This document shows positions 1,013 through 23,571 of a DNA stretch of 64,000 bases, piece by piece. The translations under genes and the position numbers were made by a program. The stretch lies in sequence record OP197928. One strand, given 5' to 3'. The notes below the pieces were generated by a model. The model did no database searches. It was not told where the DNA came from and saw nothing but the letters and a program-made list of their open reading frames with translations. The DNA is from Shigella phage A2. The stretch's first letter is position 1. The number at the start of each line of letters is the position of its first letter.

Positions 1013-2296
1013 ATGGCTAAAATCAACGAACTTCTGCGCGAATCAACCACAACGAATAGCAACTCAATCGGTCGCCCAAATCTCGTTGCTTTGACTCGCG
1101 CTACCACTAAATTAATATATTCTGACATTGTAGCAACGCAAAGAACTAATCAACCTGTTGCTGCTTTTTATGGTATCAAATACCTTAACCCAGACAATGA
1201 ATTTACATTTAAAACTGGTGCTACTTATGCTGGCGAAGCTGGATATGTAGACCGAGAACAAATCACAGAATTAACAGAAGAGTCTAAATTAACTCTCAAT
1301 AAAGGCGATTTATTCAAATATAATAATATCGTTTATAAAGTATTAGAAGATACACCATTTGCTGATATTGAAGAAAGTGATTTAGAATTAGCTCTTCAGA
1401 TTGCAATTGTTCTTTTAAAGGTTCGTCTATTTTCTGACGCAGCGTCAACAAGCAAATTTGAAAGCTCTGATAGCGAAATTGCAGATGCTAGATTCCAGAT
1501 TAATAAATGGCAAACCGCCGTTAAATCTCGTAAACTTAAAACTGGTATCACAGTTGAATTAGCACAAGATTTAGAAGCAAATGGATTCGATGCTCCTAAT
1601 TTCTTGGAAGATTTGCTTGCAACTGAAATGGCAGATGAAATCAATAAAGATATTCTGCAGTCTTTGATTACAGTATCAAAACGTTATAAAGTTACAGGAA
1701 TTACTGATACTGGATTCATTGATTTGAGTTATGCATCTGCACCTGAAGCTGGTCGTTCATTATACCGAATGGTATGTGAAATGGTTTCGCATATCCAAAA
1801 AGAATCAACTTATACAGCAACGTTTTGTGTTGCTTCAGCTCGTGCCGCTGCGATTCTTGCTGCATCAGGTTGGTTAAAACATAAACCAGAAGATGATAAA
1901 TATCTTTCACAAAATGCCTATGGGTTTTTAGCTAATGGTTTACCACTTTATTGCGATACTAACAGCCCATTAGATTATGTAATCGTTGGCGTAGTAGAAA
2001 ATATCGGTGAAAAAGAAATTGTTGGATCAATTTTCTATGCTCCGTATACAGAAGGTCTCGACTTAGATGACCCTGAACATGTAGGTGCATTTAAAGTTGT
2101 TGTTGATCCAGAAAGCTTGCAACCGTCTATCGGTTTATTAGTTAGATATGCTTTATCTGCAAATCCTTACACCGTAGCAAAAGATGAAAAAGAAGCAAGA
2201 GTAATTGATGGTGGAGACATGGATAAAATGGCGGGTCGTTCAGATTTGTCTGTTTTATTAGGTGTTAAGCTACCAAAAATTATCATTGATGAATAA
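1013..2296 (+). CDS. 24: Capsid vertex protein gp24
   Basis: 427 aa; gp23 paralogue immediately downstream of gene 23; sequence recognised. Confidence 0.92.
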   Translation: MAKINELLRESTTTNSNSIGRPNLVALTRATTKLIYSDIVATQRTNQPVAAFYGIKYLNPDNEFTFKTGATYAGEAGYVDREQITELTEESKLTLNKGDLFKYNNIVYKVLEDTPFADIEESDLELALQIAIVLLKVRLFSDAASTSKFESSDSEIADARFQINKWQTAVKSRKLKTGITVELAQDLEANGFDAPNFLEDLLATEMADEINKDILQSLITVSKRYKVTGITDTGFIDLSYASAPEAGRSLYRMVCEMVSHIQKESTYTATFCVASARAAAILAASGWLKHKPEDDKYLSQNAYGFLANGLPLYCDTNSPLDYVIVGVVENIGEKEIVGSIFYAPYTEGLDLDDPEHVGAFKVVVDPESLQPSIGLLVRYALSANPYTVAKDEKEARVIDGGDMDKMAGRSDLSVLLGVKLPKIIIDE

Positions 2297-2302
2297 AACA
2301 AA

Positions 2303-2324
2303 GGGACCTTTCGGTCCCTTTTTA
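2303..2324. terminator. Bidirectional hairpin terminator between gene 24 (+) and rnlB (-)
   Basis: GGGACC-TTTC-GGTCCC hairpin flanked by A-run upstream and T-run downstream. Confidence 0.7.
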
Positions 2325-2325
2325 T

Positions 2326-3330
2326 TTAACTTACCAATTCAATCCAAGCCGGACGAAGTACATCTTGTACCATTTTAACTAATTCCTTTTTAATCAAAGA
2401 AGGATTATCCGCTTGAGTTAGAGTAATACCTTCACGAGAAGTTTCTTCCAAAATATCTTGAACAGTTAGTCCCATCACCTTTCCAAAATCTTTTGGACCA
2501 ATTTCGCCAATTTTAGAAATAACGTTATTTACTCGGTTTAGTGTAACGTAACAAGCTAAAATCCCCACCAATTTGTTATCAGCTTCTGATAGTTCAACTT
2601 TAGCTTTAATAGGCTTATCAGACTTTTTCTTTTCACTAAATTTAGAATTCTTGCATTTGATGGCTACACGATTGCGATTAGGCAGCCAAGAAGGATAACA
2701 AGGTTTCAATACATATCCTTCAGCGGTAAATACTTCGCCTTTGGCTTCAGCTTTCCAAACACATTTATTAGCGTCAATTAAACCTGCATTATCTACGGTA
2801 AAATTATAAGACGGAACAACAGAATCCAAATCATTTGGAAGTTTAATAAGATCTTCAAATTTACCACGACCCAAAAGTGGAGCGATTTTAAACCCAAATG
2901 AATTACAAAACGATTCCATCATGTAATCATCGACATAAGTCACATCGCCACTTTCTGTAGTGACAATAATGTCAAATACATAAAAATCTTTATCGCCATA
3001 ATCAACATTCTTCTGAATGCCAGGTCCAGCGAATTCGCCAAAGACTTGATAAGATACAACCGCTGAAGTTTCCATAATATCTTGGACAGCTTTAATAGAA
3101 TCTTCGTAATTCTTTAGAATAATTTCATACCCAAAGAAATCTTCAGCAGGAAGAATCGGTCCAGTACGTTTAGCGCAAGTTACTTTATCACGCTCAATAA
3201 TCAAAGAAAAGTTTGTTCCATGAATTTTTTCACGAGCTACCCATTCGCCGCCAGTCAATCCCAAGCTATAAAGTTTTTCAATAAATTTAGAGTTGTAATG
3301 ATTTTCAAGACTGCTATACTTTTTAAACAT
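2326..3330 (-). CDS. rnlB: RNA ligase 2 (Rnl2)
   Basis: 334 aa; nucleotidyltransferase lysine motif (EKIHGTN); position between 24 and hoc. Confidence 0.88.
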
Positions 3331-3339
3331 AATTAATCC

Positions 3340-3618
3340 TCAAAATGTAATTTCTAACCAATCACCATCACGCTGATCACTATTGACTTTAAAGCTGAAT
3401 CCTTCTTTTCTCAGCCAATCACCAATTTCTTCAGTAATCAATTTATCGCGAGCAGTACAATAATAACTAAAATATGTTTTACCTTGTTCAGCTGCTTTAT
3501 TAGCAAGTTCTGAAAAATCTTTAATAAAACACTCTAGCTTAAACTGTTTACTTTTTAATGCTTTTTCACGTAATTGATTAGCAAAAGATTCATTTTCATA
3601 AAGATCATACTGTTCCAT
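3340..3618 (-). CDS. Hypothetical protein (24.2 position)
   Basis: 92 aa ORF in minus-strand operon, tightly packed. Confidence 0.6.
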   Translation of the reverse strand: MEQYDLYENESFANQLREKALKSKQFKLECFIKDFSELANKAAEQGKTYFSYYCTARDKLITEEIGDWLRKEGFSFKVNSDQRDGDWLEITF

Positions 3619-3820
3619 TTTTCACCTTTTTATTAATATGTCTTTTTCTATAGACAACTTTTTCTCGAGTTTCAAATTTATTCTTAGCAGTCATAGCTCG
3701 AGCCCATAATACAGCCACTTCTTTCGCCTGTAAGTTTAATTCACGAGCAATTTCAATGAATGACTTTCCAGACTCATGAAGAGTAAACACCACAACCTCA
3801 GTTCTCATAATCAATCTCAT
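3605..3820 (-). CDS. Hypothetical protein with possible helix-turn-helix (24.3 position)
   Basis: 71 aa ORF; segment SGKSFIEIARELNLQAKEVAVLWARA looks HTH-like. Confidence 0.55.
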   Translation of the reverse strand: MRLIMRTEVVVFTLHESGKSFIEIARELNLQAKEVAVLWARAMTAKNKFETREKVVYRKRHINKKVKNGTV

Positions 3821-3875
3821 GTTATCGAGTTGGTGCCATTATATACATCATTTTCTGATTGTGTTTTGTGTGCTT

Positions 3876-3904
3876 TCAAAATGAAGAAAGGGGCCGAAGC
3901 CCCT
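3876..3904 (-). terminator. Hairpin terminator downstream of hoc
   Basis: GGGGC-CGAA-GCCCC hairpin followed on the minus strand by T-rich run. Confidence 0.6.
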
Positions 3905-3909
3905 TATGA

Positions 3910-5331
3910 TTATGGATAGGTATAGATGATACCAGTTTCTAAAGCAGTTTTATGAATGATGTATCCATTACGTGATTCTTGAACATCAACTTCTGGATAG
4001 TCTTTCATCATCTTCTGAAGCGTATAACGATGCAAGTAGTATTTACTATCTGGATCGTCAGTTTTCCAATCTTTACCTTCTTCGGTCATTTTTTGGATTT
4101 CATCCATAACCCACCAACCACACCAGATGTAAGCTGAAGTACGATGTGGAAGAGGATGAACATAAGGTAATTCACCTTCTGGCTCTGGAGCAACTTTATC
4201 AGTTACCTGAACTTGACCTTCCGCCGTAATAGTTTTGCTATCATAATCAGCAGCAGCAGTAACAGTTGCAGTAACTTCAATAGTTTGACTTCCAATAGAT
4301 GAGGTATCAACGGTATATACATTAGTTGACCCTTCTACAGGAGAAGAATCTTTCTTCCATGAATACGCAATTTGCGCTTCTTCTGGAGCATCAGTGACAT
4401 TAGCAGTAAATGTAGCCGAAGCATCTTGTTGAACGTTAATAGAAGGAGGAGTCAATGTAACCTGTGGATTCATTGTCTTCTTATTAACTGTTAATGATAC
4501 TTCATTCGAAGTAACTTCCTTTTCATTGTAATTTTCAGCAGTTACTTGGGCTACGCATTTAATTCTTTTTACTCCACTTGTAGTTGGAGTATAGCTAAAT
4601 GTAGAGTTAGTTTCTCCACCAACTTGTGAATCATCTACATACCACTGATACGTAGCAGATGCTCCATCAGGTTGAGAAGCTAAGGCAGCAGTAAATTGAA
4701 CTGGTGTTCCAATTACTCCAGCTGAAGGACTATCGGGAGTTACTGCCAAAGTAGTTGTCTGTGTCTTTTTATTAACAGTCAATGACACTTCATTAGAAGT
4801 AACTTCTTTTGCATCATAATCTGTCGCGGTTACTTGAGCCACACACTTGATTGTTTTAACTCCGCTTGTGTCAGGAGTGTAATTGAATGTAGCGCTAGTC
4901 GCTTCGCTCACAGGAGAACCGTCAACGTACCATTGATACGTAGCAGATGCGCCTGATGGCTGCGAAGCCAAAGCAGCGGTAAATTCAACAGCTGTTCCGA
5001 TTACTCCTTCCGGAGGACTATTAGGAGTTACGGCTAAGGTAGTCGTCTGTGTCTTATTTTGAACTGTGATAGTTGTACTAATTTCAGCTGTTTCGGGACT
5101 ACTATCGGCAACTTGATTTGTTGCAACTACTTTAATAGTCTTTTGACCGGCAGGTCCTTTTAATACATAACTAAAAGTTGCTTCAGCTCCATCTTGTGGA
5201 ACATCATCAACAGTCCAAGCATATGTAATAGGTCCATCTCCAGTTTGACCACTGGGCGTAGCAGTAAACTGCTGAGTCTGATCTATAACTCCAGTAGGTG
5301 TTTTAGGAGTTATATCAACTGTAAAAGCCAT
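3910..5331 (-). CDS. hoc: Hoc, highly immunogenic outer capsid protein, with an extra Ig-like domain
   Basis: 473 aa; repeated Ig-like modules (YxWxVD, IKCVAQVTA motifs) and C-terminal capsid-binding region; position between rnlB and inh. Confidence 0.85.
   Translation of the reverse strand: MAFTVDITPKTPTGVIDQTQQFTATPSGQTGDGPITYAWTVDDVPQDGAEATFSYVLKGPAGQKTIKVVATNQVADSSPETAEISTTITVQNKTQTTTLAVTPNSPPEGVIGTAVEFTAALASQPSGASATYQWYVDGSPVSEATSATFNYTPDTSGVKTIKCVAQVTATDYDAKEVTSNEVSLTVNKKTQTTTLAVTPDSPSAGVIGTPVQFTAALASQPDGASATYQWYVDDSQVGGETNSTFSYTPTTSGVKRIKCVAQVTAENYNEKEVTSNEVSLTVNKKTMNPQVTLTPPSINVQQDASATFTANVTDAPEEAQIAYSWKKDSSPVEGSTNVYTVDTSSIGSQTIEVTATVTAAADYDSKTITAEGQVQVTDKVAPEPEGELPYVHPLPHRTSAYIWCGWWVMDEIQKMTEEGKDWKTDDPDSKYYLHRYTLQKMMKDYPEVDVQESRNGYIIHKTALETGIIYTYP
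4480..5055 (-). repeat. Tandem duplication of a 288 bp (96 aa) Ig-like domain unit inside hoc
   Basis: aa 93-188 and 189-284 of Hoc are near-identical (KTQTTTLAVTP...EVSLTVNK twice); visible as two divergent direct DNA copies. Confidence 0.85.
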
Positions 5332-5340
5332 AAGTTATCC

Positions 5341-6021
5341 TTATTTTAATGTTACGAAAGAAGAATTGCGTGTTTCACGAATTAAAACTGATCCGTCACG
5401 GTTAATGTAATAAATTAAGCTAAATAATGTTTGGTGTGCAGAAGCATGCTCAAAACTAGTTGGGTGAGATTTCCAATCCGGAGTTTCAGCGATCCATTGA
5501 TAAATCCACCAAGGAACAGTACAGAATCCTGGATTTTTTCCAATCAACTGAAGATTCGGGCTAAAGTTTTCCGGAAGAGTAAATACAGACGGCTTTTCAG
5601 ATTCAATAATCTCAGCTACAGCCTGTTCGAATTTTTCTTCAACAAAAGGAGTATCTTCAATCAAAACATCGGTATTTTCAGGAATTTTATCCGTTTCTAC
5701 TACTTCAATTTTAATGTCAGATTTAACTGGAGAATCAATCAAAAGTGCTGCTTCTGGATTGACTTCTTCATCGTCATATTTTAATCCCTCTGCAGCATCA
5801 GCAGCATCAATTAAGTCTTTAATAGATAACCCATCAGTCTCTGGCATAGGTTCACTAGCGAGCTTCTGGAGGGCTTCTTCAATATCAACAACGATATTAT
5901 CAAAAGATTTATTCTTTTTGACCTTTATACCAAACTGTTCAGCATATTCAGCTAATTTAGCTTTAGCTTCTTTATTATCATCAAGAGCCTTCAGCTCTGC
6001 AATATAATCTTTATCTATCAT
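5341..6021 (-). CDS. inh: Inh, inhibitor of prohead protease gp21
   Basis: 226 aa; position between hoc and uvsW as in T4. Confidence 0.7.
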   Translation of the reverse strand: MIDKDYIAELKALDDNKEAKAKLAEYAEQFGIKVKKNKSFDNIVVDIEEALQKLASEPMPETDGLSIKDLIDAADAAEGLKYDDEEVNPEAALLIDSPVKSDIKIEVVETDKIPENTDVLIEDTPFVEEKFEQAVAEIIESEKPSVFTLPENFSPNLQLIGKNPGFCTVPWWIYQWIAETPDWKSHPTSFEHASAHQTLFSLIYYINRDGSVLIRETRNSSFVTLK

Positions 6022-6034
6022 AATATTTCCTCAG

Positions 6035-6042
6035 TATAAATA
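6035..6042 (+). promoter_or_regulatory. Late promoter (TATAAATA) upstream of uvsW
   Basis: Exact TATAAATA 30 nt upstream of uvsW ATG. Confidence 0.6.
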
Positions 6043-6071
6043 TAGATATATTTATTACATGGTATTTAGAC

Positions 6072-7583
6072 ATGACTGACATTAAAGTACATTTTTATGA
6101 TTTTAGTCACGTGAGAATTGATTGTGAAGAAAGTACATTTCATGAACTCCGTGATTTCTTTAGCTTTGAAGCTGATGGGTATCGTTTTAATCCGAAATAC
6201 AAATATGGCCACTGGGATGGACGAATCCGTCTTTTAGATTATAATCGTCTTCTTCCATTCGGCTTAGTCGGGCAAATTAAAAAGTTCTGTGATAACTTTG
6301 GCTATAAAGCCTGGATTGACCCACAAATTAACGAAAAAGAAGAATTATCAAGAAAAGATTTTGATGAATGGCTTTCTAAATTAGAAATCTATTCAGGAAA
6401 TAAAAGAATTGAACCACACTGGTATCAAAAAGATGCAGTGTTCGAAGGATTAGTCAATCGTCGTAGAATTCTTAATCTTCCAACATCCGCTGGTAAATCG
6501 TTAATTCAAGCTTTGCTTGCGCGATATTATTTGGAAAATTATGAAGGTAAAATTCTTATCATTGTTCCAACAACTGCTCTAACAACTCAGATGGCTGATG
6601 ACTTCGTTGACTATCGTTTATTCAGTCATGCAATGATAAAGAAAATTGGTGGCGGAGCATCAAAAGATGATAAATATAAAAATGATGCACCAGTCGTTGT
6701 TGGTACATGGCAAACTGTAGTAAAACAACCGAAAGAATGGTTCTCACAGTTTGGAATGATGATGAATGATGAATGCCATCTTGCTACAGGAAAAAGTATT
6801 TCATCTATCATATCAGGTTTAAATAACTGTATGTTTAAATTTGGTTTGTCTGGTTCATTACGTGATGGCAAAGCTAATATCATGCAGTATGTTGGAATGT
6901 TTGGTGAAATATTTAAGCCAGTAACGACCTCTAAATTAATGGAAGATGGACAAGTAACTGAGTTAAAAATTAATAGTATTTTTCTTCGCTATCCCGATGA
7001 GTTCACTACTAAATTAAAGGGAAAAACTTACCAAGAAGAAATAAAAATTATTACGGGGCTTAGTAAAAGAAATAAATGGATCGCTAAATTAGCTATTAAG
7101 CTTGCGCAAAAAGATGAAAACGCTTTTGTCATGTTTAAGCATGTATCACATGGTAAAGCTATTTTCGATTTAATTAAAAATGAATACGATAAAGTTTATT
7201 ACGTATCAGGGGAAGTTGATACCGAAACCCGCAATATAATGAAAACCTTAGCTGAAAACGGTAAAGGAATAATTATAGTAGCTAGTTATGGTGTATTTTC
7301 TACTGGTATTTCAGTTAAAAATCTGCATCACGTTGTTTTAGCACACGGTGTTAAATCTAAAATTATTGTATTGCAAACAATAGGTCGCGTATTACGTAAG
7401 CATGGTTCTAAAACAATCGCAACAGTCTGGGACCTCATCGATGATTGTGGTGTTAAGCCAAAATCTGCTAATACGAAAAAGAAATATGTTCATTTGAACT
7501 ATCTTTTAAAACACGGCATTGATCGTATTCAGCGCTACGCAGATGAAAAATTTAATTACGTAATGAAAACAGTTAATTTATAA
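6072..7583 (+). CDS. uvsW: UvsW, SF2 DNA helicase of recombination/repair
   Basis: 503 aa; Walker A (PTSAGKS) and DECH box (NDECHLAT). Confidence 0.9.
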   Translation: MTDIKVHFYDFSHVRIDCEESTFHELRDFFSFEADGYRFNPKYKYGHWDGRIRLLDYNRLLPFGLVGQIKKFCDNFGYKAWIDPQINEKEELSRKDFDEWLSKLEIYSGNKRIEPHWYQKDAVFEGLVNRRRILNLPTSAGKSLIQALLARYYLENYEGKILIIVPTTALTTQMADDFVDYRLFSHAMIKKIGGGASKDDKYKNDAPVVVGTWQTVVKQPKEWFSQFGMMMNDECHLATGKSISSIISGLNNCMFKFGLSGSLRDGKANIMQYVGMFGEIFKPVTTSKLMEDGQVTELKINSIFLRYPDEFTTKLKGKTYQEEIKIITGLSKRNKWIAKLAIKLAQKDENAFVMFKHVSHGKAIFDLIKNEYDKVYYVSGEVDTETRNIMKTLAENGKGIIIVASYGVFSTGISVKNLHHVVLAHGVKSKIIVLQTIGRVLRKHGSKTIATVWDLIDDCGVKPKSANTKKKYVHLNYLLKHGIDRIQRYADEKFNYVMKTVNL

Positions 7584-15242: not shown

Positions 15243-16207
15243 TGTATTCTTTAGAGGAATTTAATAATCAAGCAATAAACGCAGATTTCCAACGTAATAA
15301 TATGTTTAGCTGCGTTTTTGCGACAACTCCATCAACTAAAAGCTCTTCGTTGATAAGTTCAATTAGCAACTTTTCTTATAATAACTTGGGTCTAAATTCA
15401 GATTGGTTAGGATTGACTCAAGGCGATATTAATCAGGGAATTACCACGCTAATTACCGCTGGCACACAAAAACTGATAAGAAAATCAGGGGTTAGTAAAT
15501 ATCTTATTGGTGCCATGAGTCAACGTACAGTTCAAAGTTTATTGGGCTCATTTACAGTTGGTACATATTTAATTGACTTCTTTAACATGGCATATAACTC
15601 ATCTGGATTGATGATATATTCTGTAAAAATGCCAGAGAATAGATTATCCTATGAAACTGACTGGAACTATAATTCTCCTAATATTCGTATAACTGGGAGA
15701 GAATTAGACCCTTTGGTTATTTCATTTAGAATGGATTCAGAAGCATGTAACTATCGTGCAATGCAAGACTGGGTTAACGCTGTTCAAGACCCAGTAACTG
15801 GATTGCGTGCTTTGCCACAAGATGTCGAGGCAGATATTCAGGTTAATCTTCATGCTCGTAATGGATTACCTCATACTGCGGTGATGTTCACTGGATGCAT
15901 TCCAGTGTCAGTGAGTGCTCCTGAGTTATCATATGATGGAGATAACCAAATAACTACATTTGATGTTACTTTTGCGTATAGAGTCATGCAGGCTGGGTCG
16001 GTTGATAGACAAGCTGCGCTTGAGTGGCTTGAATCTGCTGCTATAAATGGCATTCAAAGCGTTCTCGGAAATAGTGGAGGTGTTACTGGATTATCTAATT
16101 CGCTTTCACGACTTAGTAGATTAGGAGGAACTGCTGGAAGCATTTCAAACATTAATACTATGACGGGAATTGTCAACTCGCAAAGTAAAATATTAGGAGC
16201 AATATAA
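15242..16207 (+). CDS. 54: Baseplate tail-tube initiator gp54
   Basis: 321 aa; gene order. Confidence 0.85.
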   Translation: MYSLEEFNNQAINADFQRNNMFSCVFATTPSTKSSSLISSISNFSYNNLGLNSDWLGLTQGDINQGITTLITAGTQKLIRKSGVSKYLIGAMSQRTVQSLLGSFTVGTYLIDFFNMAYNSSGLMIYSVKMPENRLSYETDWNYNSPNIRITGRELDPLVISFRMDSEACNYRAMQDWVNAVQDPVTGLRALPQDVEADIQVNLHARNGLPHTAVMFTGCIPVSVSAPELSYDGDNQITTFDVTFAYRVMQAGSVDRQAALEWLESAAINGIQSVLGNSGGVTGLSNSLSRLSRLGGTAGSISNINTMTGIVNSQSKILGAI

Positions 16208-16211
16208 CAAT

Positions 16212-16237
16212 GGGGACCGAAAGGTCCCCATATTTTT
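16212..16237. terminator. Hairpin terminator after gene 54 (convergent with minus-strand genes)
   Basis: GGGGACC-GAAA-GGTCCCC followed by ATATTTTTATTT. Confidence 0.75.
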
Positions 16238-16526
16238 ATTTACGGAATGAAATAAAAGCAGCAACTGAAGCAACTAAACTGTCTTCAATATAAACTTCAA
16301 TTTTTACCGGAGCTTCTGACTCAAATTTACCTGTTACTACACCTTGGAAAATGCTTTCAGTCTGCTCTGGCTTTGAAAAATTTTCAGAAGGAAAAATTCC
16401 GAACTTTTTATCTGTTCCAAAAATTTTGATAAATTCATCATAAACTGCTTCATTAAAAGCATTATCAGCAGGAATAACGCCTTCAACTACAAGTTCTTGA
16501 CCTAAAAAGCGCAAAGAAGATTTCAT
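16236..16526 (-). CDS. Hypothetical protein (alt.-3 position)
   Basis: 96 aa ORF with SD GAGGA; early promoter block upstream. Confidence 0.65.
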   Translation of the reverse strand: MKSSLRFLGQELVVEGVIPADNAFNEAVYDEFIKIFGTDKKFGIFPSENFSKPEQTESIFQGVVTGKFESEAPVKIEVYIEDSLVASVAAFISFRK

Positions 16527-16557
16527 TTTGTGTTCCTCATGTTATGTCAGTAAAATT

Positions 16558-16587
16558 ACTATAACACAACACGAGGGACTTGTAAAC
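16558..16587 (-). promoter_or_regulatory. T4-type early promoter (GTTTACA -35, 17 bp, TATAGT -10)
   Basis: Read on minus strand; 53 bp block near-identical to 32170..32222. Confidence 0.55.
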
Positions 16588-18644
16588 TACATCTTGAACT
16601 TTTTAGACATTCCGTTGATGTTAACCAAAGAAGCCAAGATTTGAGAAACTTCGTTTTTCTCTTCTTTTGATTCTTCTACAAGGAATTGATTAAACCCAGC
16701 CATTGGACGAACTTCACCAGTTTCCATCAGATGATCGCCATCATATACCGATTCTTCTAATTGTTCAGAAGGAGGAACGATTGTGCCTTCGATTAGATAC
16801 TTGTTATAAGCAGTTTCTTTCATCATGTACGTGCTTACTTTATTAATCTTCAACAAAATTCCACGCGGTAAAATAACTTCAGCTTCTGATGGAAATCCTG
16901 ATAAATGACCTGGAACGATAACTTTAATTCGCTCAGCTCCTTTTATTACCATACCTACGCTAGTTTCAGCATCTTCATTAGCATATGCAGAATGACTGCC
17001 CATATGCATTAAATCTTCAGCATCAACAGAACCTTCTCCTTCACCAGAAAATACTGCGCCGGAATCATCTAGAGCCATATAGTTTTTACCATGCTCACCG
17101 AAGATATTTGGTTTAAGCGATGTTGATACGAAGTTCTTGAAATAAAACATTTTATTTTCAATATTATGACGTAAAGTTTTAAAGGTAACTTCTTGTCCAC
17201 GATAAAGCGTAGTTCCTGGAGGAAGAACTGAACCTTTGGCAAAGGCAGAATCCATTGTCTCGATGTGTTTAATAGCTCGTTCCATGTATTCTTCACGGGT
17301 AGAATCTGGTTTACCCAAGAGGAACGAGTTCATTTCAACATATGAATCTGCACAATAATCTTCAATTACATCAGACTCAGCCTGAGTCAGTCCTTTTGGA
17401 GTTACTTCGGTGCTTGCGTATTCATATGCCTGAGCAGCAGATTCATTAATCAATTTATAAATGCCATTCATGACAAATTGAATAATAGCTACCTTTTCGT
17501 CTGGCGTGGCTTTAGAACCTTTAACTAAATCATTGATAATTTTCTTAATAACATCAAAGCTATTAGAAATATTAATGTCAGCGAGATCGCTCAAAATTTT
17601 ATCGGTTTTATAATCAAAGAATTCTTTATTCTTTAAATATTCTTGAGAACCTTGATATGTTATATCGCTCTGCAGCTTGATAGATGGATCACGTAAACGT
17701 GCATGGGCCAATGCAATATGATTTCGGAAGCTTTCTAGTTCATAATCATTAGATTTAAAACGAGAAGCACTCCTCATACCACCGATAGCTCCTTTGCCGA
17801 AGTTTGAACCAATCTGAATAACGCCAGAGTTCATTGGTCCTTCTGCTTTATATACCGGAACTTTAGATTCAAACTCTTGATATTTCTTAGCGGCGAAGCT
17901 ATCACCCTGAAGTGAAGCATCGACAGTAGAATATTGAGCTTGTGCTGCTAATCGACGACTAATTTTAGTTTTCTGAATAACAGCTTGATCCGTGCGCTTA
18001 TCATTTTCTAGAGCAATAGAAGCGGCAACAGCAACAGCTTTAGGAACAGCATTACCTGTTTTAACGTCTACATAAACATCACCAACCTTTGATTCAACTT
18101 TTGTGAATAACTCAGTTGAAATAGGAGGTACACCTGGAATGTCTTCTAAATTAGCAGTTTTACGATAAACCATAATATATGCATACTTTTTATCATAGTC
18201 CCAGATTTCCTTTAAAAGAACATATCGACCTGCTCCTTTAGTACGTACTAAACGGTCAGCAATAACTTGCATTTGACGAGCAGCGCCATTTGTTTTACTT
18301 TTTAGTACGCGGAATAGGCATGCGTCAATTTTATACTGTTTCATTGTTTGAAGAGCAGTATCAAAAACCGCATTAATGACACCAATTGGATTTCCACCCA
18401 AGTTTTTAAGTTTAACTAATGATAGTTTCTCATTAACACCTATCATTACGATATGCATCATTTTATCGCCTGGCTTAACGTTTTTATTTGTATCACCGCC
18501 AGAGGTGTATGTACAAAATCTAAATCCAGGAAGCACACTTTCTTCACCGGCTTGAATAGCAAAAATTTGAGGTATTTTATGCTTAGGATTTAAGTTAACA
18601 ACCGGCGCCGAAGCGCCGTCAAATAATTCTGTAATAAGTTCCAT
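16587..18644 (-). CDS. Alt-family mono-ADP-ribosyltransferase, paralogue A (head-packaged)
   Basis: 685 aa; N-terminal MELITELFD capsid-targeting/gp21 cleavage motif; ART triad R (YRGQ), S (STS), ExE (EAEVILPRG). Confidence 0.85.
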   Translation of the reverse strand: MELITELFDGASAPVVNLNPKHKIPQIFAIQAGEESVLPGFRFCTYTSGGDTNKNVKPGDKMMHIVMIGVNEKLSLVKLKNLGGNPIGVINAVFDTALQTMKQYKIDACLFRVLKSKTNGAARQMQVIADRLVRTKGAGRYVLLKEIWDYDKKYAYIMVYRKTANLEDIPGVPPISTELFTKVESKVGDVYVDVKTGNAVPKAVAVAASIALENDKRTDQAVIQKTKISRRLAAQAQYSTVDASLQGDSFAAKKYQEFESKVPVYKAEGPMNSGVIQIGSNFGKGAIGGMRSASRFKSNDYELESFRNHIALAHARLRDPSIKLQSDITYQGSQEYLKNKEFFDYKTDKILSDLADINISNSFDVIKKIINDLVKGSKATPDEKVAIIQFVMNGIYKLINESAAQAYEYASTEVTPKGLTQAESDVIEDYCADSYVEMNSFLLGKPDSTREEYMERAIKHIETMDSAFAKGSVLPPGTTLYRGQEVTFKTLRHNIENKMFYFKNFVSTSLKPNIFGEHGKNYMALDDSGAVFSGEGEGSVDAEDLMHMGSHSAYANEDAETSVGMVIKGAERIKVIVPGHLSGFPSEAEVILPRGILLKINKVSTYMMKETAYNKYLIEGTIVPPSEQLEESVYDGDHLMETGEVRPMAGFNQFLVEESKEEKNEVSQILASLVNINGMSKKFKM

Positions 18645-18647
18645 GAT

Positions 18648-20741
18648 TTATCCTTGAACGAACTTGTAAGGCATGTTTGCAATATCTATGCAAGACGCAA
18701 TAATTCCAAGAGATGATTCTACTTTTTGTTTAACATTTGATGAAACAAATGATGCAAAGTCAACTCTGTCTTCTATTTCAATATCACCTGTCATTGTAAC
18801 TACTTCACCAGTTTCCATTAGACGGTCACCGTCATAAATTACTGATTCGGTGAGTTCTTCCGTAGTCATAACTTCAGCTTGAATGAGTTTTGTATTATTA
18901 GATGTTGTTCCGTCATTATTAGAAGCATCAGTTATTTTATTAACTTTGACCATCAATCCTCGTGGTAGAATAACTTCAGCTTCTGTTGCTATTCCGAGAC
19001 TTCCTGGATATACAACATTAACTTTATGAGCTCCATCAATTGCCCATCCTATTTGAACTTTAACGTATTCTGGATTTTCTTTATACGCTCTTATTTCGTT
19101 TGGATTAATAGTTATTCCTTCTTCATTTTTATCAACTGTTAATTCATTACGAGCTTCTGGTTCTAAAAGACCAATGCCAGCATGTGTAATTCCAAAACGT
19201 CCAAAAATGATAGGAGTTAAAGAAGTAGATACAAAATTTCTGAAATAGAACACTTTATTTTTAACTAGTGCTTCGTATATAGGAGCAGTCATACTTTGAG
19301 CACGATAAACTGTAATGCCTTCTGGTATACGGTCACCATTTTCAAAAGCTGAATCTAAGTTATTTATAGCAGATTCAATTTCTTTTTCACTCATTACATC
19401 ATATCGTTCTGGATTGTAGCGTCCTAAAAGAAGATTATTGATGTCAGTATATCCTGAACCGCAATACTCTCTAATGCCGCGCTTTTGTGATGGAGTATAT
19501 TTAGAACCATCACGGGCAATAGTAATATCAATCATTGGACCTGCACCAATTCCAGAAAAACTATAAATCATTCGTTTGAGGAATTTAGTTTTTGCTGCGT
19601 TCCAGGAATTTTTAGTTATTTCTTCCCAGACTTCATCTGGCTGCCCTTTACGAGTTTTATTATGTTTATCAAGCCAAGTATCTTTATATTCTTCAAAGAA
19701 TTTATTAATAGCTGCTGCATACTTCTCTAAACATTTTATTGAAGTAGTCGGTTCATTTTTAATCGCATTAAGAATTACATCTTTAATTTTTTCAGAAACT
19801 TCATTAACCTCACTTTTTGAAAAGAATTTATAGTCATAATGAAGTTCATCTGCGGTTCCTTCGGCAATAATTTTTGCTGCCTTAGTTTTAGAAGCTAATG
19901 AATTAATTCCAAGTTTCATTTCTTCTGCTTCGGGAATTAAAGGAGCGGTAGCAGGTTTATTGAAATTAGCTGCGGTAGATTCATATTTCTGGAATAATTC
20001 ACTTTCAAATCTAGAAGATTCCAATGACTGACTTTGTGCAATTGCTCTACGGGAAATTTTAACTTTAACGATTACAGCTTGGTCAGAACGTTTATCATTT
20101 TCTTGTGCAATAGATGCTGCAATTGCCTCATTTTTAGTTACTTGAGCTCCAGTATCTTTATTGATATAAACATCGCCGACTTTCGATTCAACTTTAGTAA
20201 AGAGCTCGGTGCTAATTTCCGGAACTCCTGGAATGTCTTCTAGTGATACATTTTTGCGATGTATAAGAATATATGCATACTTTTTATCATAATCCCAGAG
20301 TTCCTTAAGAAGGACGTATCTGCCACCTGAACGACTGCGGATAAGTCTATCAGCAATAACTTGAATTTGTCGAGCTTGACCAGCAGTTTTAGACTTAAGA
20401 ATACGAAGCATACAGGCATCAATTTTATACTGACGCATCGTCTGCATCGCAACAGTAAAAACTGAATTGATGTAATTAATTGGGCTTGGACCGAGACCTT
20501 TTAATTTAGCAATTGAACCTTTAGCAGTTAATGTAAAAGGAACAATATGCATCATTTTATCGCCCATCTTTAAATCGCGATTAGTATCACCTCCAGATGT
20601 ATAGGTACATAAACGAAAGCCTGGTTGTTCAATTGCGTCATCAACATGAACTGAAAAAATTTGTGGTATTTTCTTCTTTGGATTTAAGTTTGTAATCGGA
20701 AGAGTAGTATCTTCGTCAAATAATTCTGTAATGAGTTCCAT
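18648..20741 (-). CDS. Alt-family mono-ADP-ribosyltransferase, paralogue B (head-packaged)
   Basis: 697 aa from second Met; same MELITELFD N-terminus and R (YRAQ), S (STS), ExE (EAEVILPRG) motifs; which copy is the canonical alt orthologue cannot be decided without alignment. Confidence 0.85.
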   Translation of the reverse strand: MELITELFDEDTTLPITNLNPKKKIPQIFSVHVDDAIEQPGFRLCTYTSGGDTNRDLKMGDKMMHIVPFTLTAKGSIAKLKGLGPSPINYINSVFTVAMQTMRQYKIDACMLRILKSKTAGQARQIQVIADRLIRSRSGGRYVLLKELWDYDKKYAYILIHRKNVSLEDIPGVPEISTELFTKVESKVGDVYINKDTGAQVTKNEAIAASIAQENDKRSDQAVIVKVKISRRAIAQSQSLESSRFESELFQKYESTAANFNKPATAPLIPEAEEMKLGINSLASKTKAAKIIAEGTADELHYDYKFFSKSEVNEVSEKIKDVILNAIKNEPTTSIKCLEKYAAAINKFFEEYKDTWLDKHNKTRKGQPDEVWEEITKNSWNAAKTKFLKRMIYSFSGIGAGPMIDITIARDGSKYTPSQKRGIREYCGSGYTDINNLLLGRYNPERYDVMSEKEIESAINNLDSAFENGDRIPEGITVYRAQSMTAPIYEALVKNKVFYFRNFVSTSLTPIIFGRFGITHAGIGLLEPEARNELTVDKNEEGITINPNEIRAYKENPEYVKVQIGWAIDGAHKVNVVYPGSLGIATEAEVILPRGLMVKVNKITDASNNDGTTSNNTKLIQAEVMTTEELTESVIYDGDRLMETGEVVTMTGDIEIEDRVDFASFVSSNVKQKVESSLGIIASCIDIANMPYKFVQG

Positions 20742-20769
20742 CATATCCTCTCTAGTGTTTATTCTATTT

Positions 20770-20792
20770 ATAAAATTAAAGGCCCGAAGGCC
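20770..20792 (-). terminator. Hairpin terminator downstream of the 62 aa ORF
   Basis: GGCC-TTCG-GGCC hairpin plus T-rich tail on minus strand. Confidence 0.5.
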
Positions 20793-20793
20793 T

Positions 20794-20982
20794 TTAATAA
20801 TCTATTGGTAAGAGAGTACGATATATTTCAAACTTTGGACCTTTTTCATAGGCATCAAATGTTTCTGTGAATTTATTATAAGCATATGCATCTATAAATT
20901 CAATCATAATTTGTGATACAGAAGTAGAAACATCTCCACCTTCTTTTTGAGCAACGACAATTGTTTCTAAGTAAGCTTTCAT
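20794..20982 (-). CDS. Hypothetical protein
   Basis: 62 aa ORF overlapping stop of gene 30 (ATGA-type coupling). Confidence 0.6.
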   Translation of the reverse strand: MKAYLETIVVAQKEGGDVSTSVSQIMIEFIDAYAYNKFTETFDAYEKGPKFEIYRTLLPIDY

Positions 20983-22442
20983 AGACCAGTTACCTCATGA
21001 AAATCACCAAATACATCCTCGAATGTATTAGCTTTAGTTTTATCTTCACGTAAACGAATCGCAATTGGAAGAAATAATTTTACGTAATCAGTGCGGCCAT
21101 CAGATTTTAACCAACCATTGCATTCGCACTCTAGAATTTTTCCAATATAATAATTTTGGTTTTCCATAATGCGAGTACGGTCAAGTTCATGTGATTTTAC
21201 GCCGGCTTTATCTTTTAAGCCTGAACCAGCATTTACTTTAATTTTTCCACACTCTGATTCAAGAATAAATCCACCTGCTTTAGTAGGGTCTTTACGGTGA
21301 GGATAAATTCCTACAATTTTTAAATCAACATCAATTACTTCTTTAAATTTATAGAGATTTTTTGAACGAGCATTTTCCCACAATCCATCGGTATTTTTGA
21401 GAATAATACCTTCAAGACCTTGGTCAATATACTTTTTATAAATTACCTTAGCTTCATCTAGGTTATTTACTACCTGGTTTTCAATTAAAATTACTTTATC
21501 ATATCCTGATGTCATTTGTTCTAGTTTAGAAAAACGTACATCATATTTTAAACGAAACGCCGGAAGACCGTATATTTCTACCAACGGGACATAATCCCAG
21601 ACCTGAAACTTCATGCATTCGGCTTCTTTTTCGGAAATGGTTCCTTTTAAGGATTTATTGGCGATTCCATTAGAAGCAGTACGAGATTCCGCTACTTCGG
21701 CGAATTCTTTAGCTTTACTAATTTCAGGATAAGCATCAAAAAGAAAATCTAGGCCTTCTGGTTCCTTTTTAACTTGCTCATGGTATACCAATTCGCCATC
21801 AATTAACACACCTTCTGGATGAATCTGGCGGGCTTCAGCAGTCATTTTGATTAATTCTTCCTTAAGAAGATCTAATCCTAGATATTCATTACCAGCTCGT
21901 GATAAAAGACGAACATCATCTAATTCATCGCCTCGGACTTCAGCAAAACACCGAGCTCCATCTGCTTTTAACTGTGCAAAGGCTGGAAATTTGATATTCT
22001 TATTAATGCCTTTTTCATCATAAGAACTTGCCAGCATTTGAGGTTGTTCAGGAATTAAACCTGGCCAAACTTTGTTTGCAATAGATACTGAAGCACCGCA
22101 TTCAAGGTCTCGCATCATCACTCGACGCAAAACTTCAACATCATCCTTTTTACCATCGGTGATATATCCAGTCAATTCCTCAATTGCAGCATTTCCGGTC
22201 AATTTCCGAGTAGCTAACGTGAATTCAATGAAGTCAAGCATATCGGTAATGGTCAGCATTCCAAAACTCTGGGTAGCAATACCAGGTTTAGGCCATTTCT
22301 TGATATAATACTGTAACCCACGAGAATAAGTCAGACGATATACCCGTTTAAGCAATTCATTATCTTTATTCTTTTCAAGAATTGCTTGCTTCTGCTTAGT
22401 TGATCCAATAGATGCTATTTCATTCAGAATTTTAAGAATCAT
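20979..22442 (-). CDS. 30: ATP-dependent DNA ligase gp30
   Basis: 487 aa; adenylation motif KADGAR; sequence recognised. Confidence 0.95.
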   Translation of the reverse strand: MILKILNEIASIGSTKQKQAILEKNKDNELLKRVYRLTYSRGLQYYIKKWPKPGIATQSFGMLTITDMLDFIEFTLATRKLTGNAAIEELTGYITDGKKDDVEVLRRVMMRDLECGASVSIANKVWPGLIPEQPQMLASSYDEKGINKNIKFPAFAQLKADGARCFAEVRGDELDDVRLLSRAGNEYLGLDLLKEELIKMTAEARQIHPEGVLIDGELVYHEQVKKEPEGLDFLFDAYPEISKAKEFAEVAESRTASNGIANKSLKGTISEKEAECMKFQVWDYVPLVEIYGLPAFRLKYDVRFSKLEQMTSGYDKVILIENQVVNNLDEAKVIYKKYIDQGLEGIILKNTDGLWENARSKNLYKFKEVIDVDLKIVGIYPHRKDPTKAGGFILESECGKIKVNAGSGLKDKAGVKSHELDRTRIMENQNYYIGKILECECNGWLKSDGRTDYVKLFLPIAIRLREDKTKANTFEDVFGDFHEVTGL

Positions 22443-22708
22443 TGCTCATCCTTCAAAGTTTGGTTTACAGCTCTATTATAAATCAATTCATCATTAAGCT
22501 CAGGCAAAGACTTATGATATGTAGTTCTAACTTTATTTCCTTGCATCCAGTGCTTGATATAAATGAAACCTTGCTCTACACATTTTTTAAAAATTCGTTC
22601 GTCTTTTTGAGCTCGGAATTCTGGATTGCATCTAAAAAATTGATTTACGTGACCGTAATCACGTGTAGTATTACCTTCATTTTCATAAATAGTGTGAACG
22701 ACAAACAT
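22439..22708 (-). CDS. Hypothetical protein (30.1 position)
   Basis: 89 aa ORF translationally coupled to neighbours. Confidence 0.65.
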   Translation of the reverse strand: MFVVHTIYENEGNTTRDYGHVNQFFRCNPEFRAQKDERIFKKCVEQGFIYIKHWMQGNKVRTTYHKSLPELNDELIYNRAVNQTLKDEQ

Positions 22709-23571
22709 TAGAATGCTCCTTGGAAAATATTATCACCACTAGTAAATCTATTAAAATACCCTGCATCACCAGGCTTAGTATAACTCCACGTATGGAATGG
22801 ATTCATATGATACGGGTGTGTATAATATGGATTATATGGATGTGTATAATATGGATTATACGGATTAAATCCAGGAGTTCTCCAGGTAGTGTTCCAACGA
22901 AAAGAATCGTTTTTAACCATCTTCTCAATTACATCTTTTATAGCTTTTTCACTATCAAAACTTTCTTTATTTTCCTTCGGTGAAAAAAGCTTATTTTCTA
23001 CATCATTCCATGTATAAACTCGCTGAGCGGTTTTTGGAATATTGTCACGCTCTCCTCGCGCCATCCAATAAACAGGAACATTTAATATTTCACTCGCATG
23101 ATCGCAGTGGTGAGCAAGATCGTCAATATAACAAATTACGTTATATTTCTCTTTTGCCTTTTTGAATAACTCTTCTTTTGAAGAATCATGACCACACATC
23201 ATTACTTCTGAGAAGGCACCAGGAAAAAGAGCATTCAAATTAAATTGACGATTCAACAGAGCGTCAATAGAATCACCCAACGCTGTAACAGCTACAAAAT
23301 TATAATCTTCTTTTAATTTGTTAATTACGCACAGGGCGTCTTTATATGGAGACAAATAACGAATAAAATCTGAACGATTGTATTTTTCAATTAACTTGAC
23401 GCCAAGTTCTTCATCACAATTAAAGAGTTTACCCGGAGAAATAAATTTCTCATCTTGGATCATTTTTAAAATATGTTCTAACGGAAGATTATATTTCTGA
23501 GCAAAATAAGGAAGGCCTGATTGCCAGCTTAAACATACTCCATCAATATCAGTTAAAATAGTAGGCTTCAT
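22708..23571 (-). CDS. HAD-like hydrolase domain protein with C-terminal Tyr/Pro-rich tandem repeat (30.2 position)
   Basis: 287 aa; N-terminal LTDIDGV (HAD motif I-like); C-terminal NPYNPYYTHPYNPYYTHPY. Confidence 0.7.
   Translation of the reverse strand: MKPTILTDIDGVCLSWQSGLPYFAQKYNLPLEHILKMIQDEKFISPGKLFNCDEELGVKLIEKYNRSDFIRYLSPYKDALCVINKLKEDYNFVAVTALGDSIDALLNRQFNLNALFPGAFSEVMMCGHDSSKEELFKKAKEKYNVICYIDDLAHHCDHASEILNVPVYWMARGERDNIPKTAQRVYTWNDVENKLFSPKENKESFDSEKAIKDVIEKMVKNDSFRWNTTWRTPGFNPYNPYYTHPYNPYYTHPYHMNPFHTWSYTKPGDAGYFNRFTSGDNIFQGAF

Follow-up and report, generated by a model that had tools for sequence, protein, structure and literature searches.

Tandem Alt-family ADP-ribosyltransferase genes in Shigella phage A2: the canonical alt gene and a full-length paralogue present in T4 as a deleted remnant

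A 64,000-nucleotide stretch of the genome of Shigella phage A2 (sequence record OP197928; hereafter the window), a segment of a T4-like Tequatrovirus genome, carries two adjacent minus-strand open reading frames (ORFs) that encode Alt-family ADP-ribosyltransferases (ARTs). The upstream gene, ORF B (18648–20741, 697 aa), is assigned here as the orthologue of T4 and T6 alt, in the allelic form found in T6. The downstream gene, ORF A (16587–18644, 685 aa), is a second Alt paralogue and corresponds to the full-length form of a gene that T4 retains as two fragments, alt.-1 (61 aa) and alt.-2 (67 aa). Taking the evidence together, we think it probable that B and A form one late operon encoding two packaged and injected arginine-specific ARTs, B being the canonical enzyme and A an ancient paralogue lost in T4, and that the two likely have different sets of substrates.

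A and B align with each other over their full length at 41% identity (BLASTP, E = 2e-161), in agreement with a first-pass annotation of the sequence that had proposed them to be paralogues. Pfam family PF03496 (ADPrib_exo_Tox) matches both proteins (E = 2.8e-20 and 1.7e-37), and both match PHROG 802, "Alt-like RNA polymerase ADP-ribosyltransferase", from end to end (A, E = 7e-255; B, E = 5e-272). A 99%-identical database protein has precomputed matches to PF26846 (Tevenvirinae_ADPRT) and PF03496. PF26846 was not returned by the local Pfam scan, although PF26911, whose accession is higher, does appear. NCBIfam gave no match for A, B or their neighbours.

The R-S-ExE triad that had been read from the sequence is present in both proteins. 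In A it comprises LYR482GQ (R482 within 17193–17207), S507-T-S509 (within 17115–17129) and E587-A-E589 (within 16860–16889); in B, numbered from the 697-residue start, it comprises VYR480AQ (R480 within 19296–19310), S505-T-S507 (within 19218–19232) and E587-A-E589 (within 18957–18986), all on the minus strand. The columns of R482, S507, S509, E587 and E589 (A numbering) are invariant in an alignment of 24 sequences, and a check for a copy without an intact ExE motif found neither to lack it. An ExE rather than a QxE motif is associated with arginine specificity, and as part of the overall reading we regard both proteins as probable arginine-specific mono-ADP-ribosyltransferases of the Alt family. 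The YR and ExE motifs of B align with the catalytic arginine and ExE of CdtA, and iota toxin Ia is among the same PDB sequence matches, which are weak (E about 4e-4). A search of the AlphaFold model of A against the PDB with Foldseek returned Vis, C3bot, CDTa, VIP2 and Certhrax (probability 1.00, E = 7e-8 to 1e-5, target-normalised template modelling (TM) score 0.55–0.69). C3 exoenzyme, VIP2, iota toxin Ia, CDTa, Vis and Certhrax share the catalytic fold, the motif order and PF03496 with the Alt proteins. Identity between these bacterial R-S-E toxins and Alt proteins is about 15–20%, and the Alt proteins differ in the spacing of STS and ExE, which at about 80 residues is roughly double that of iota toxin Ia, and in carrying phage-specific N-terminal, central and propeptide modules.

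Which of the two copies is the canonical alt had been left in doubt, and alignment with T4 Alt settles the point in favour of B. B is about 72% identical to T4 Alt overall, compared with 43% for A, and 98.7% identical to T6 Alt. The similarity of B to T4 Alt is unevenly distributed: residues 1–238 are 100% identical, the centre is 13–40% identical, the ART region 57–83% and the last ~100 residues 83–100%. Position leads to the same assignment. The region 16000–21200 is 98.6% identical to Shigella phage KRT47 over 5.2 kb and matches 544 phage records, mostly T4-like phages of Escherichia and Shigella, many of which annotate two "Alt-like RNA polymerase ADP-ribosyltransferase" genes. On the minus strand the order is gene 30, alt.1, ORF B, ORF A and alt.-3, followed by baseplate genes 54, 48 and 29 on the plus strand; gene 30/alt.1 and alt.-3/gene 54 thus flank the pair, which is encoded on the other strand from the baseplate genes, as in T4, T6 and JS98. 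T4 Alt itself (682 aa, an NAD+--arginine ADP-ribosyltransferase and internal head protein) has B as its positional orthologue, between alt.1 and gene 54 and behind the same late promoter, and the two have in common the R/STS/ExE motifs and the ITE-6 and LTE processing sites. A shares the four-module architecture of T4 Alt at 41–43% identity, differs from it across the centre and the loop between STS and ExE, and ends in ...KKFKM, not ...YKFVQG. Host proteins are the substrates of T4 ModA and ModB, two further R-S-E ADP-ribosyltransferases found in the same group of phages (PMC5512222, PMC2988021); these two enzymes are small, early and unpackaged, whereas A and B carry the Alt N-terminal domain and both propeptides and would be expressed late, from a late promoter.

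The T6-type allele, taken as at least 90% identity to B, occurs in about 316 records, and a T4-type allele, 60–80% identical to B, in about 212. At least two alleles of alt thus circulate in the genus. The two types have identical termini, and their sequences indicate that they are exchangeable, with the ends conserved. The canonical alt gene is mosaic among phages when positions 18648–20741 of the window are compared with the T4 extract (5455–7503).

The relationship of A to the T4 fragments can be followed at the nucleotide level. T4 DNA is near-identical to A over codons 1–116 and again over the last 7 codons and the downstream flank. Relative to A, the T4 alt.-1/alt.-2 region (T4 extract 5066–5451) has a 1-bp deletion in a run of A residues and a 1,699-bp deletion between two copies of a 9-bp direct repeat, CTAAAAAGT. 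In the window the left copy lies inside ORF A at 18297–18305 and the right copy near the end of ORF A at 16598–16606 (both minus strand), and these mark the two T4 breakpoints. What the deletion removed is the central domain together with the ART domain and the greater part of the C terminus. PHROG families 23015 and 15247, to which alt.-1 and alt.-2 belong, match A (E = 2e-40 and 3e-38) better than B (E = 1e-21 and 2e-19). The T4 RefSeq note describes alt.-1/alt.-2 as "an old duplication of the first part of gene alt"; our comparison instead identifies them as the remnant of a full-length paralogue. The T4-type junction is contiguous in 91 of 498 records, among them the natural isolates ACG-C40, slur14, HY03 and Salmonella phage SG1, and the deletion is thus a natural polymorphism rather than a laboratory artefact.

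The existence of this frameshifted, internally deleted remnant in T4 and the other records raises the possibility that A is a decaying or catalytically dead duplicate. In the window the ORF is intact and all of its catalytic columns are those invariant in the family; A is intact in T6, and about 396 phage records contain A at no less than 95% identity. Between the window and Yersinia phage fD1, which has the same intact pair (g200 for A and g201 for B), A shows 71.5 synonymous and 8.5 non-synonymous differences, a ratio of non-synonymous to synonymous substitution rates (dN/dS) of 0.029 at a synonymous divergence (dS) of 0.18; the corresponding dN/dS for B is 0.063. A is under strong purifying selection. 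These observations contradict a pseudogene reading of A, and decay or catalytic death is, in our estimation, exceedingly improbable.

B and A appear to form one two-gene late operon behind a single late promoter. A T4-type late promoter motif, TATAAATA, is located at 20765–20772 (minus strand), 24 nt upstream of the start of ORF B, and the motif and its spacing are the same upstream of T4 and T6 alt. The window as a whole contains 11 matches to TATAAATA against 9.3 expected, which is not above chance, so the assignment is argued from position and conservation. A second exact TATAAATA lies inside ORF B at 19361–19368 (minus strand) and may be a chance occurrence or an internal late promoter. 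The gap between B and A is 3 nt, an AAGGA Shine-Dalgarno sequence precedes A, and neither a terminator scan nor reading of the sequence found a terminator between the two genes. Such an operon would place both proteins in the expression class expected of head proteins. The two adjacent minus-strand ORFs had been placed at 16587–18644 (685 aa) and 18648–20744; both stand as read, except that B most likely starts at its second ATG (20741), giving 697 rather than 698 residues, because a GAGG Shine-Dalgarno sequence lies 5 nt from the second ATG and 2 nt from the first, and because T4 alt is annotated from the equivalent ATG.

A GC-rich hairpin (AAAGGCCTTCGGGCCTTT followed by AATTTT) was read from the sequence at 20778–20795 on the minus strand, overlapping the alt.1 stop codon. 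It is identical in T4 and T6 and is a probable terminator ahead of the alt operon; the terminator scan did not return it. At the other end, an early-type sigma-70 promoter (TTTACA, 17 nt, TG, TATAGT; 16558–16586, minus strand) directly follows the ORF A stop codon and reads into alt.-3, and by its sequence it would mark the 3' end of the late alt operon. The T4 alt.-2 ORF, being frameshifted, runs into this early-type promoter and ends at the TAG of the −10 element.

Each protein comprises four modules: a 6-residue N-propeptide, an N-domain of about 230 residues, a helical centre of about 180 residues, and an ART domain of the C3/VIP2 type with an acidic C-propeptide of 54–65 residues. In A these correspond to 18627–18644 (N-propeptide), 17940–18617 (N-domain, residues 10–235), 17388–17939 (centre, residues 236–419), 16779–17387 (ART domain, residues 420–622) and 16590–16751 (C-propeptide); in B, the N-propeptide (residues 1–6) is encoded at 20724–20741, the N-domain at 20034–20714 and the C-propeptide at 18651–18845, all on the minus strand. 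The C-propeptide of A has 54 residues, compared with 63–65 in T4 Alt and B. The AlphaFold model of A has a predicted local distance difference test score (pLDDT) of 74, and a separate model of the first 240 residues has a pLDDT of 85. The model places an α/β N-domain at about residues 15–215, the helical centre at about 230–415 and the ART domain at about 420–622, and its only long low-confidence segments are residues 1–10 and 630–653.

An exhaustive sequence search found the N-domain only in proteins of Alt length and always at the N terminus, in 68 clusters at 50% identity among 1.84 billion proteins; proteins with this domain are almost always 600–712 aa long. A structure search of BFVD with the N-domain gave moderate similarity (E = 1e-5 to 1e-7, query-normalised TM score about 0.5) to large uncharacterised myovirus proteins, some of which carry zeta-toxin, deaminase or ParB domains. 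That the N-domain could be a general carrier module is a lead from these matches.

The duplication that produced A and B is old. Synonymous divergence between the two genes is saturated (dS about 1.4). JS98, a Dhakavirus, has the same two-gene arrangement ("alta" and a second alt) between alt.1 and alt.-3 (JS98 extract 1499–5713), with cross-genus identities of 42–61% by region. Trees and identity tables made region by region place A with the downstream JS98 copy (centre 42%, ART 57%, C-terminal tail 56%) and B with the upstream copy (centre 34%, ART 61%, C-terminal tail 53%). Because the members of the pair are orthologous to the JS98 copies in the centre, ART domain and C-terminal tail, the duplication is older than the split between Tequatrovirus and Dhakavirus. 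Other tandem or duplicate alt genes in T4-like phages include 44RR ORF187c and those of 6phi13/SHFML-11.

The N-domains follow a different pattern, each being closest to the other copy in its own genome: identity is 66% between A and B and 65% between the two JS98 copies, compared with 42–47% for cross-genus pairs. Old gene conversion would account for this grouping, as would a constraint that the two copies share through a lineage-specific partner, for instance the prohead core. Recent gene conversion of the N-domain in the window genome is ruled out by a dS of 1.38, a nucleotide identity of 66% and a longest exact shared run of 24 nt. The N-domain is the only region in concerted evolution, although its synonymous sites are saturated within the window genome.

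A third state of the locus is represented by hybrid genes, whose products are about 90–96% identical to A and carry a B-type N terminus. Each has a single clean crossover, and at least five breakpoints were found, all within the N-domain. Wherever context is available, a single hybrid gene lies between alt.1 and alt.-3: in two metagenomic contigs (extracts 5001–7055 and 3501–5561) and in ECML-134 and Yersinia phage PST (2501–4561 of each extract). In these two cultured phages the hybrid is annotated plainly as alt, and in all four cases it is the sole alt gene. The recurrence of hybrids with different crossovers indicates that unequal recombination in the shared N-domain repeatedly collapses the pair, and the viability of phages that have only a hybrid indicates that an A-type centre and catalytic domain can serve as the only Alt.

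These genomes also bear on whether A might be a redundant second copy. Phages with only B (T4-type) and phages with only an A-type catalytic half (PST and ECML-134) both exist, as if either enzyme sufficed, and A and B are alike in catalytic triad, N-domain and propeptides and lie in one operon. Overlap between enzymes already exists in T4. Alt attaches ADP-ribose to Arg265 in one of the RNA polymerase alpha subunits and also modifies other host proteins (PMC2988021, PMC9958956), an activity that within the Alt family is known for T4 Alt only, and ModA likewise acts on Arg265 (PMC2988021). Redundancy fits poorly, however, with a saturated duplication that predates the split of the genera and with strong purifying selection on both copies in about 80% of records, an unusual outcome if they were purely redundant. 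Nor does it fit the distribution of divergence between A and B, which are 50–83% identical over residues 1–235 and 27–57% identical in the ART core but only 7–20% identical over residues ~240–420 and 3–23% identical in the STS–ExE loop. The strong divergence of the central regions had been noted at first reading and is borne out by these values. In related toxins, the loop between STS and ExE carries substrate-recognition elements. Because the centre and this loop have diverged, A and B likely modify distinct sets of substrates, and we judge simple redundancy of A to be unlikely.

That both proteins are head proteins is suggested by their processing sites. A and B have the N-terminal sequence MELITELFD in common, which the first-pass annotation had recognised as the kind of sequence cleaved by the prohead protease gp21; MELITE is indeed the hexapeptide that gp21 removes from T4 Alt at ITE-6 (PMC5694885; GenBank X15811 note). 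By mass spectrometry, gp21 cuts T4 Alt at ITE-6 and at LTE-619, shedding a 63-residue C-terminal propeptide as well, to yield a 68.2-kDa product (PMC5694885), and the mass that we compute for this product is equal to the published value. Both T4-mapped sites are kept in the window: ITE-6 in A and B, and an L-x-E site about 55–65 residues from the C terminus, which is LEE-631 in A (16749–16760, minus strand) and LTE-632 in B (18843–18854, minus strand). E6 and the glutamate of the C-terminal site are invariant columns of the 24-sequence alignment, and both sites of A fall in low-confidence, predicted disordered segments of the model. Trimmed at both sites, A would have a mass of 69.1 kDa and B one of 70.1 kDa. 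Beyond the C-terminal cut, Y-D-G-D, E-x-G-E, F..F and a terminal K-F are invariant across the paralogues in the same alignment. These motifs make the C-propeptide a candidate for targeting or auto-inhibition that may be at least as good as the N-terminal hexapeptide. T4 Alt is present at about 40 copies per head and is injected with the DNA (PMC9958956). By analogy with T4 Alt, we infer that A would likewise be packaged and injected, would be enzymatically active and would have targets of its own. The first-pass annotation had read the pair as two head-packaged, injected ARTs, and each check of that reading at sequence level came out in its favour.

Several points count against this interpretation. 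T4 and about 18% of related records have no intact gene A, and alt itself is non-essential in T4, so the phage can dispense with whatever A does, at least in laboratory hosts. A phmmer search of A against PDB sequences gave no match, and its link to solved ART structures is made through Pfam, alignment with B and the predicted fold. The motif L/I-x-E is short and recurs several times in each protein at places that are presumably uncut. Even in T4 Alt, where the documented event is cleavage, the hexapeptide is a candidate capsid-targeting signal only; by comparison, the 10-residue N-terminal capsid-targeting sequence (CTS) of IPIII is experimentally sufficient for head targeting (PMC9026906). 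A literature search for virion data on a two-gene Tequatrovirus returned no direct evidence of A in virions. The main text of the fD1 particle proteome study does not mention Gp200 or Gp201 (PMC8309999), and the fD1 particle preparation lists many non-structural proteins and would be weak evidence in any case (PMC8309999).

This silence of the literature would also fit a scheme in which A is made late and stays unpackaged, acting in the producing cell or serving as a degraded head-assembly factor, with B alone injected; several core proteins are degraded completely by gp21. What A retains speaks for packaging: it keeps the whole packaged-enzyme architecture, with both gp21 sites in disordered segments and the C-propeptide motifs described above, and within each genome its N-domain has evolved together with that of B. 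Natural hybrids, moreover, set an A body behind a B N terminus as the only alt gene. We consider an unpackaged A very unlikely.

For two packaged and injected enzymes, the following course can be proposed by analogy with T4 Alt. Both A and B would be made late and built into the prohead core, where gp21 would trim them after ITE-6 and L-x-E (E631 in A, E632 in B) to mature enzymes of about 69–70 kDa. The mature proteins would then be carried in the head, ejected with the DNA, and could use host NAD+ to ADP-ribosylate host proteins ahead of any phage gene expression. A more specific proposal, to which we give an even chance, is that A is a fourth injected T-even ART beside Alt, ModA and ModB, with its own host targets (for example, defence or toxin proteins), that went unnoticed in five decades of work on T4 genetics solely through the 1.7-kb deletion in T4, and that the N-domain and C-propeptide, not the hexapeptide alone, make up the packaging module, kept uniform between the two enzymes within each phage lineage.

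The tandem alt pair as such is already known: it is widespread, annotated in hundreds of GenBank/RefSeq records and nothing unusual among phages of this kind. Nolan et al. (2006) counted alt.-1/alt.-2, with further ORFs, among the paralogous duplicates of alt (PMC1524935), the JS98 record names an "alta" gene, and a 2026 paper reported two paralogous Alt-like proteins of 43% identity and suggested functional divergence (PMC13600099). Our literature search on the second Alt returned descriptive mentions only and no experimental study of A. What is added here is the assignment of B as the alt orthologue and of A as the ancestor of T4 alt.-1/alt.-2 with an exact deletion mechanism, together with the conservation of both gp21 sites, the purifying selection on A, the age of the duplication and the hybrid-gene state. 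Gene annotation is unaffected by these findings.

Nearly all knowledge of injected phage ARTs comes from T4, which lacks the second enzyme, and most sequenced relatives, including T6, encode an intact A. Because A is intact and strongly selected in most relatives, the picture of "three T4 ARTs" probably understates what a typical T-even phage delivers at infection. The locus exists in three states, with both genes, with alt and a remnant, or with one hybrid gene. These states constitute a natural experiment and, together with alt alleles that have an identical N-domain, could help to locate what determines packaging and target specificity.

The neighbours of the pair are conserved and, like it, lie on the minus strand. 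Upstream are DNA ligase gene 30 (20979–22442) and the alt.1 homologue (20794–20982, 62 aa, PHROG 1976, unknown function), and downstream is the alt.-3 homologue (16236–16526, 96 aa, PHROG 1739, unknown function). Gene 54 is separated from alt.-3 by a strong bidirectional hairpin terminator (16210–16231). Farther upstream, at the position of T4 gene 30.2, a 287-aa ORF (22708–23571, minus strand) has a C-terminal tandem peptide repeat (PYNPYYTH, repeated).

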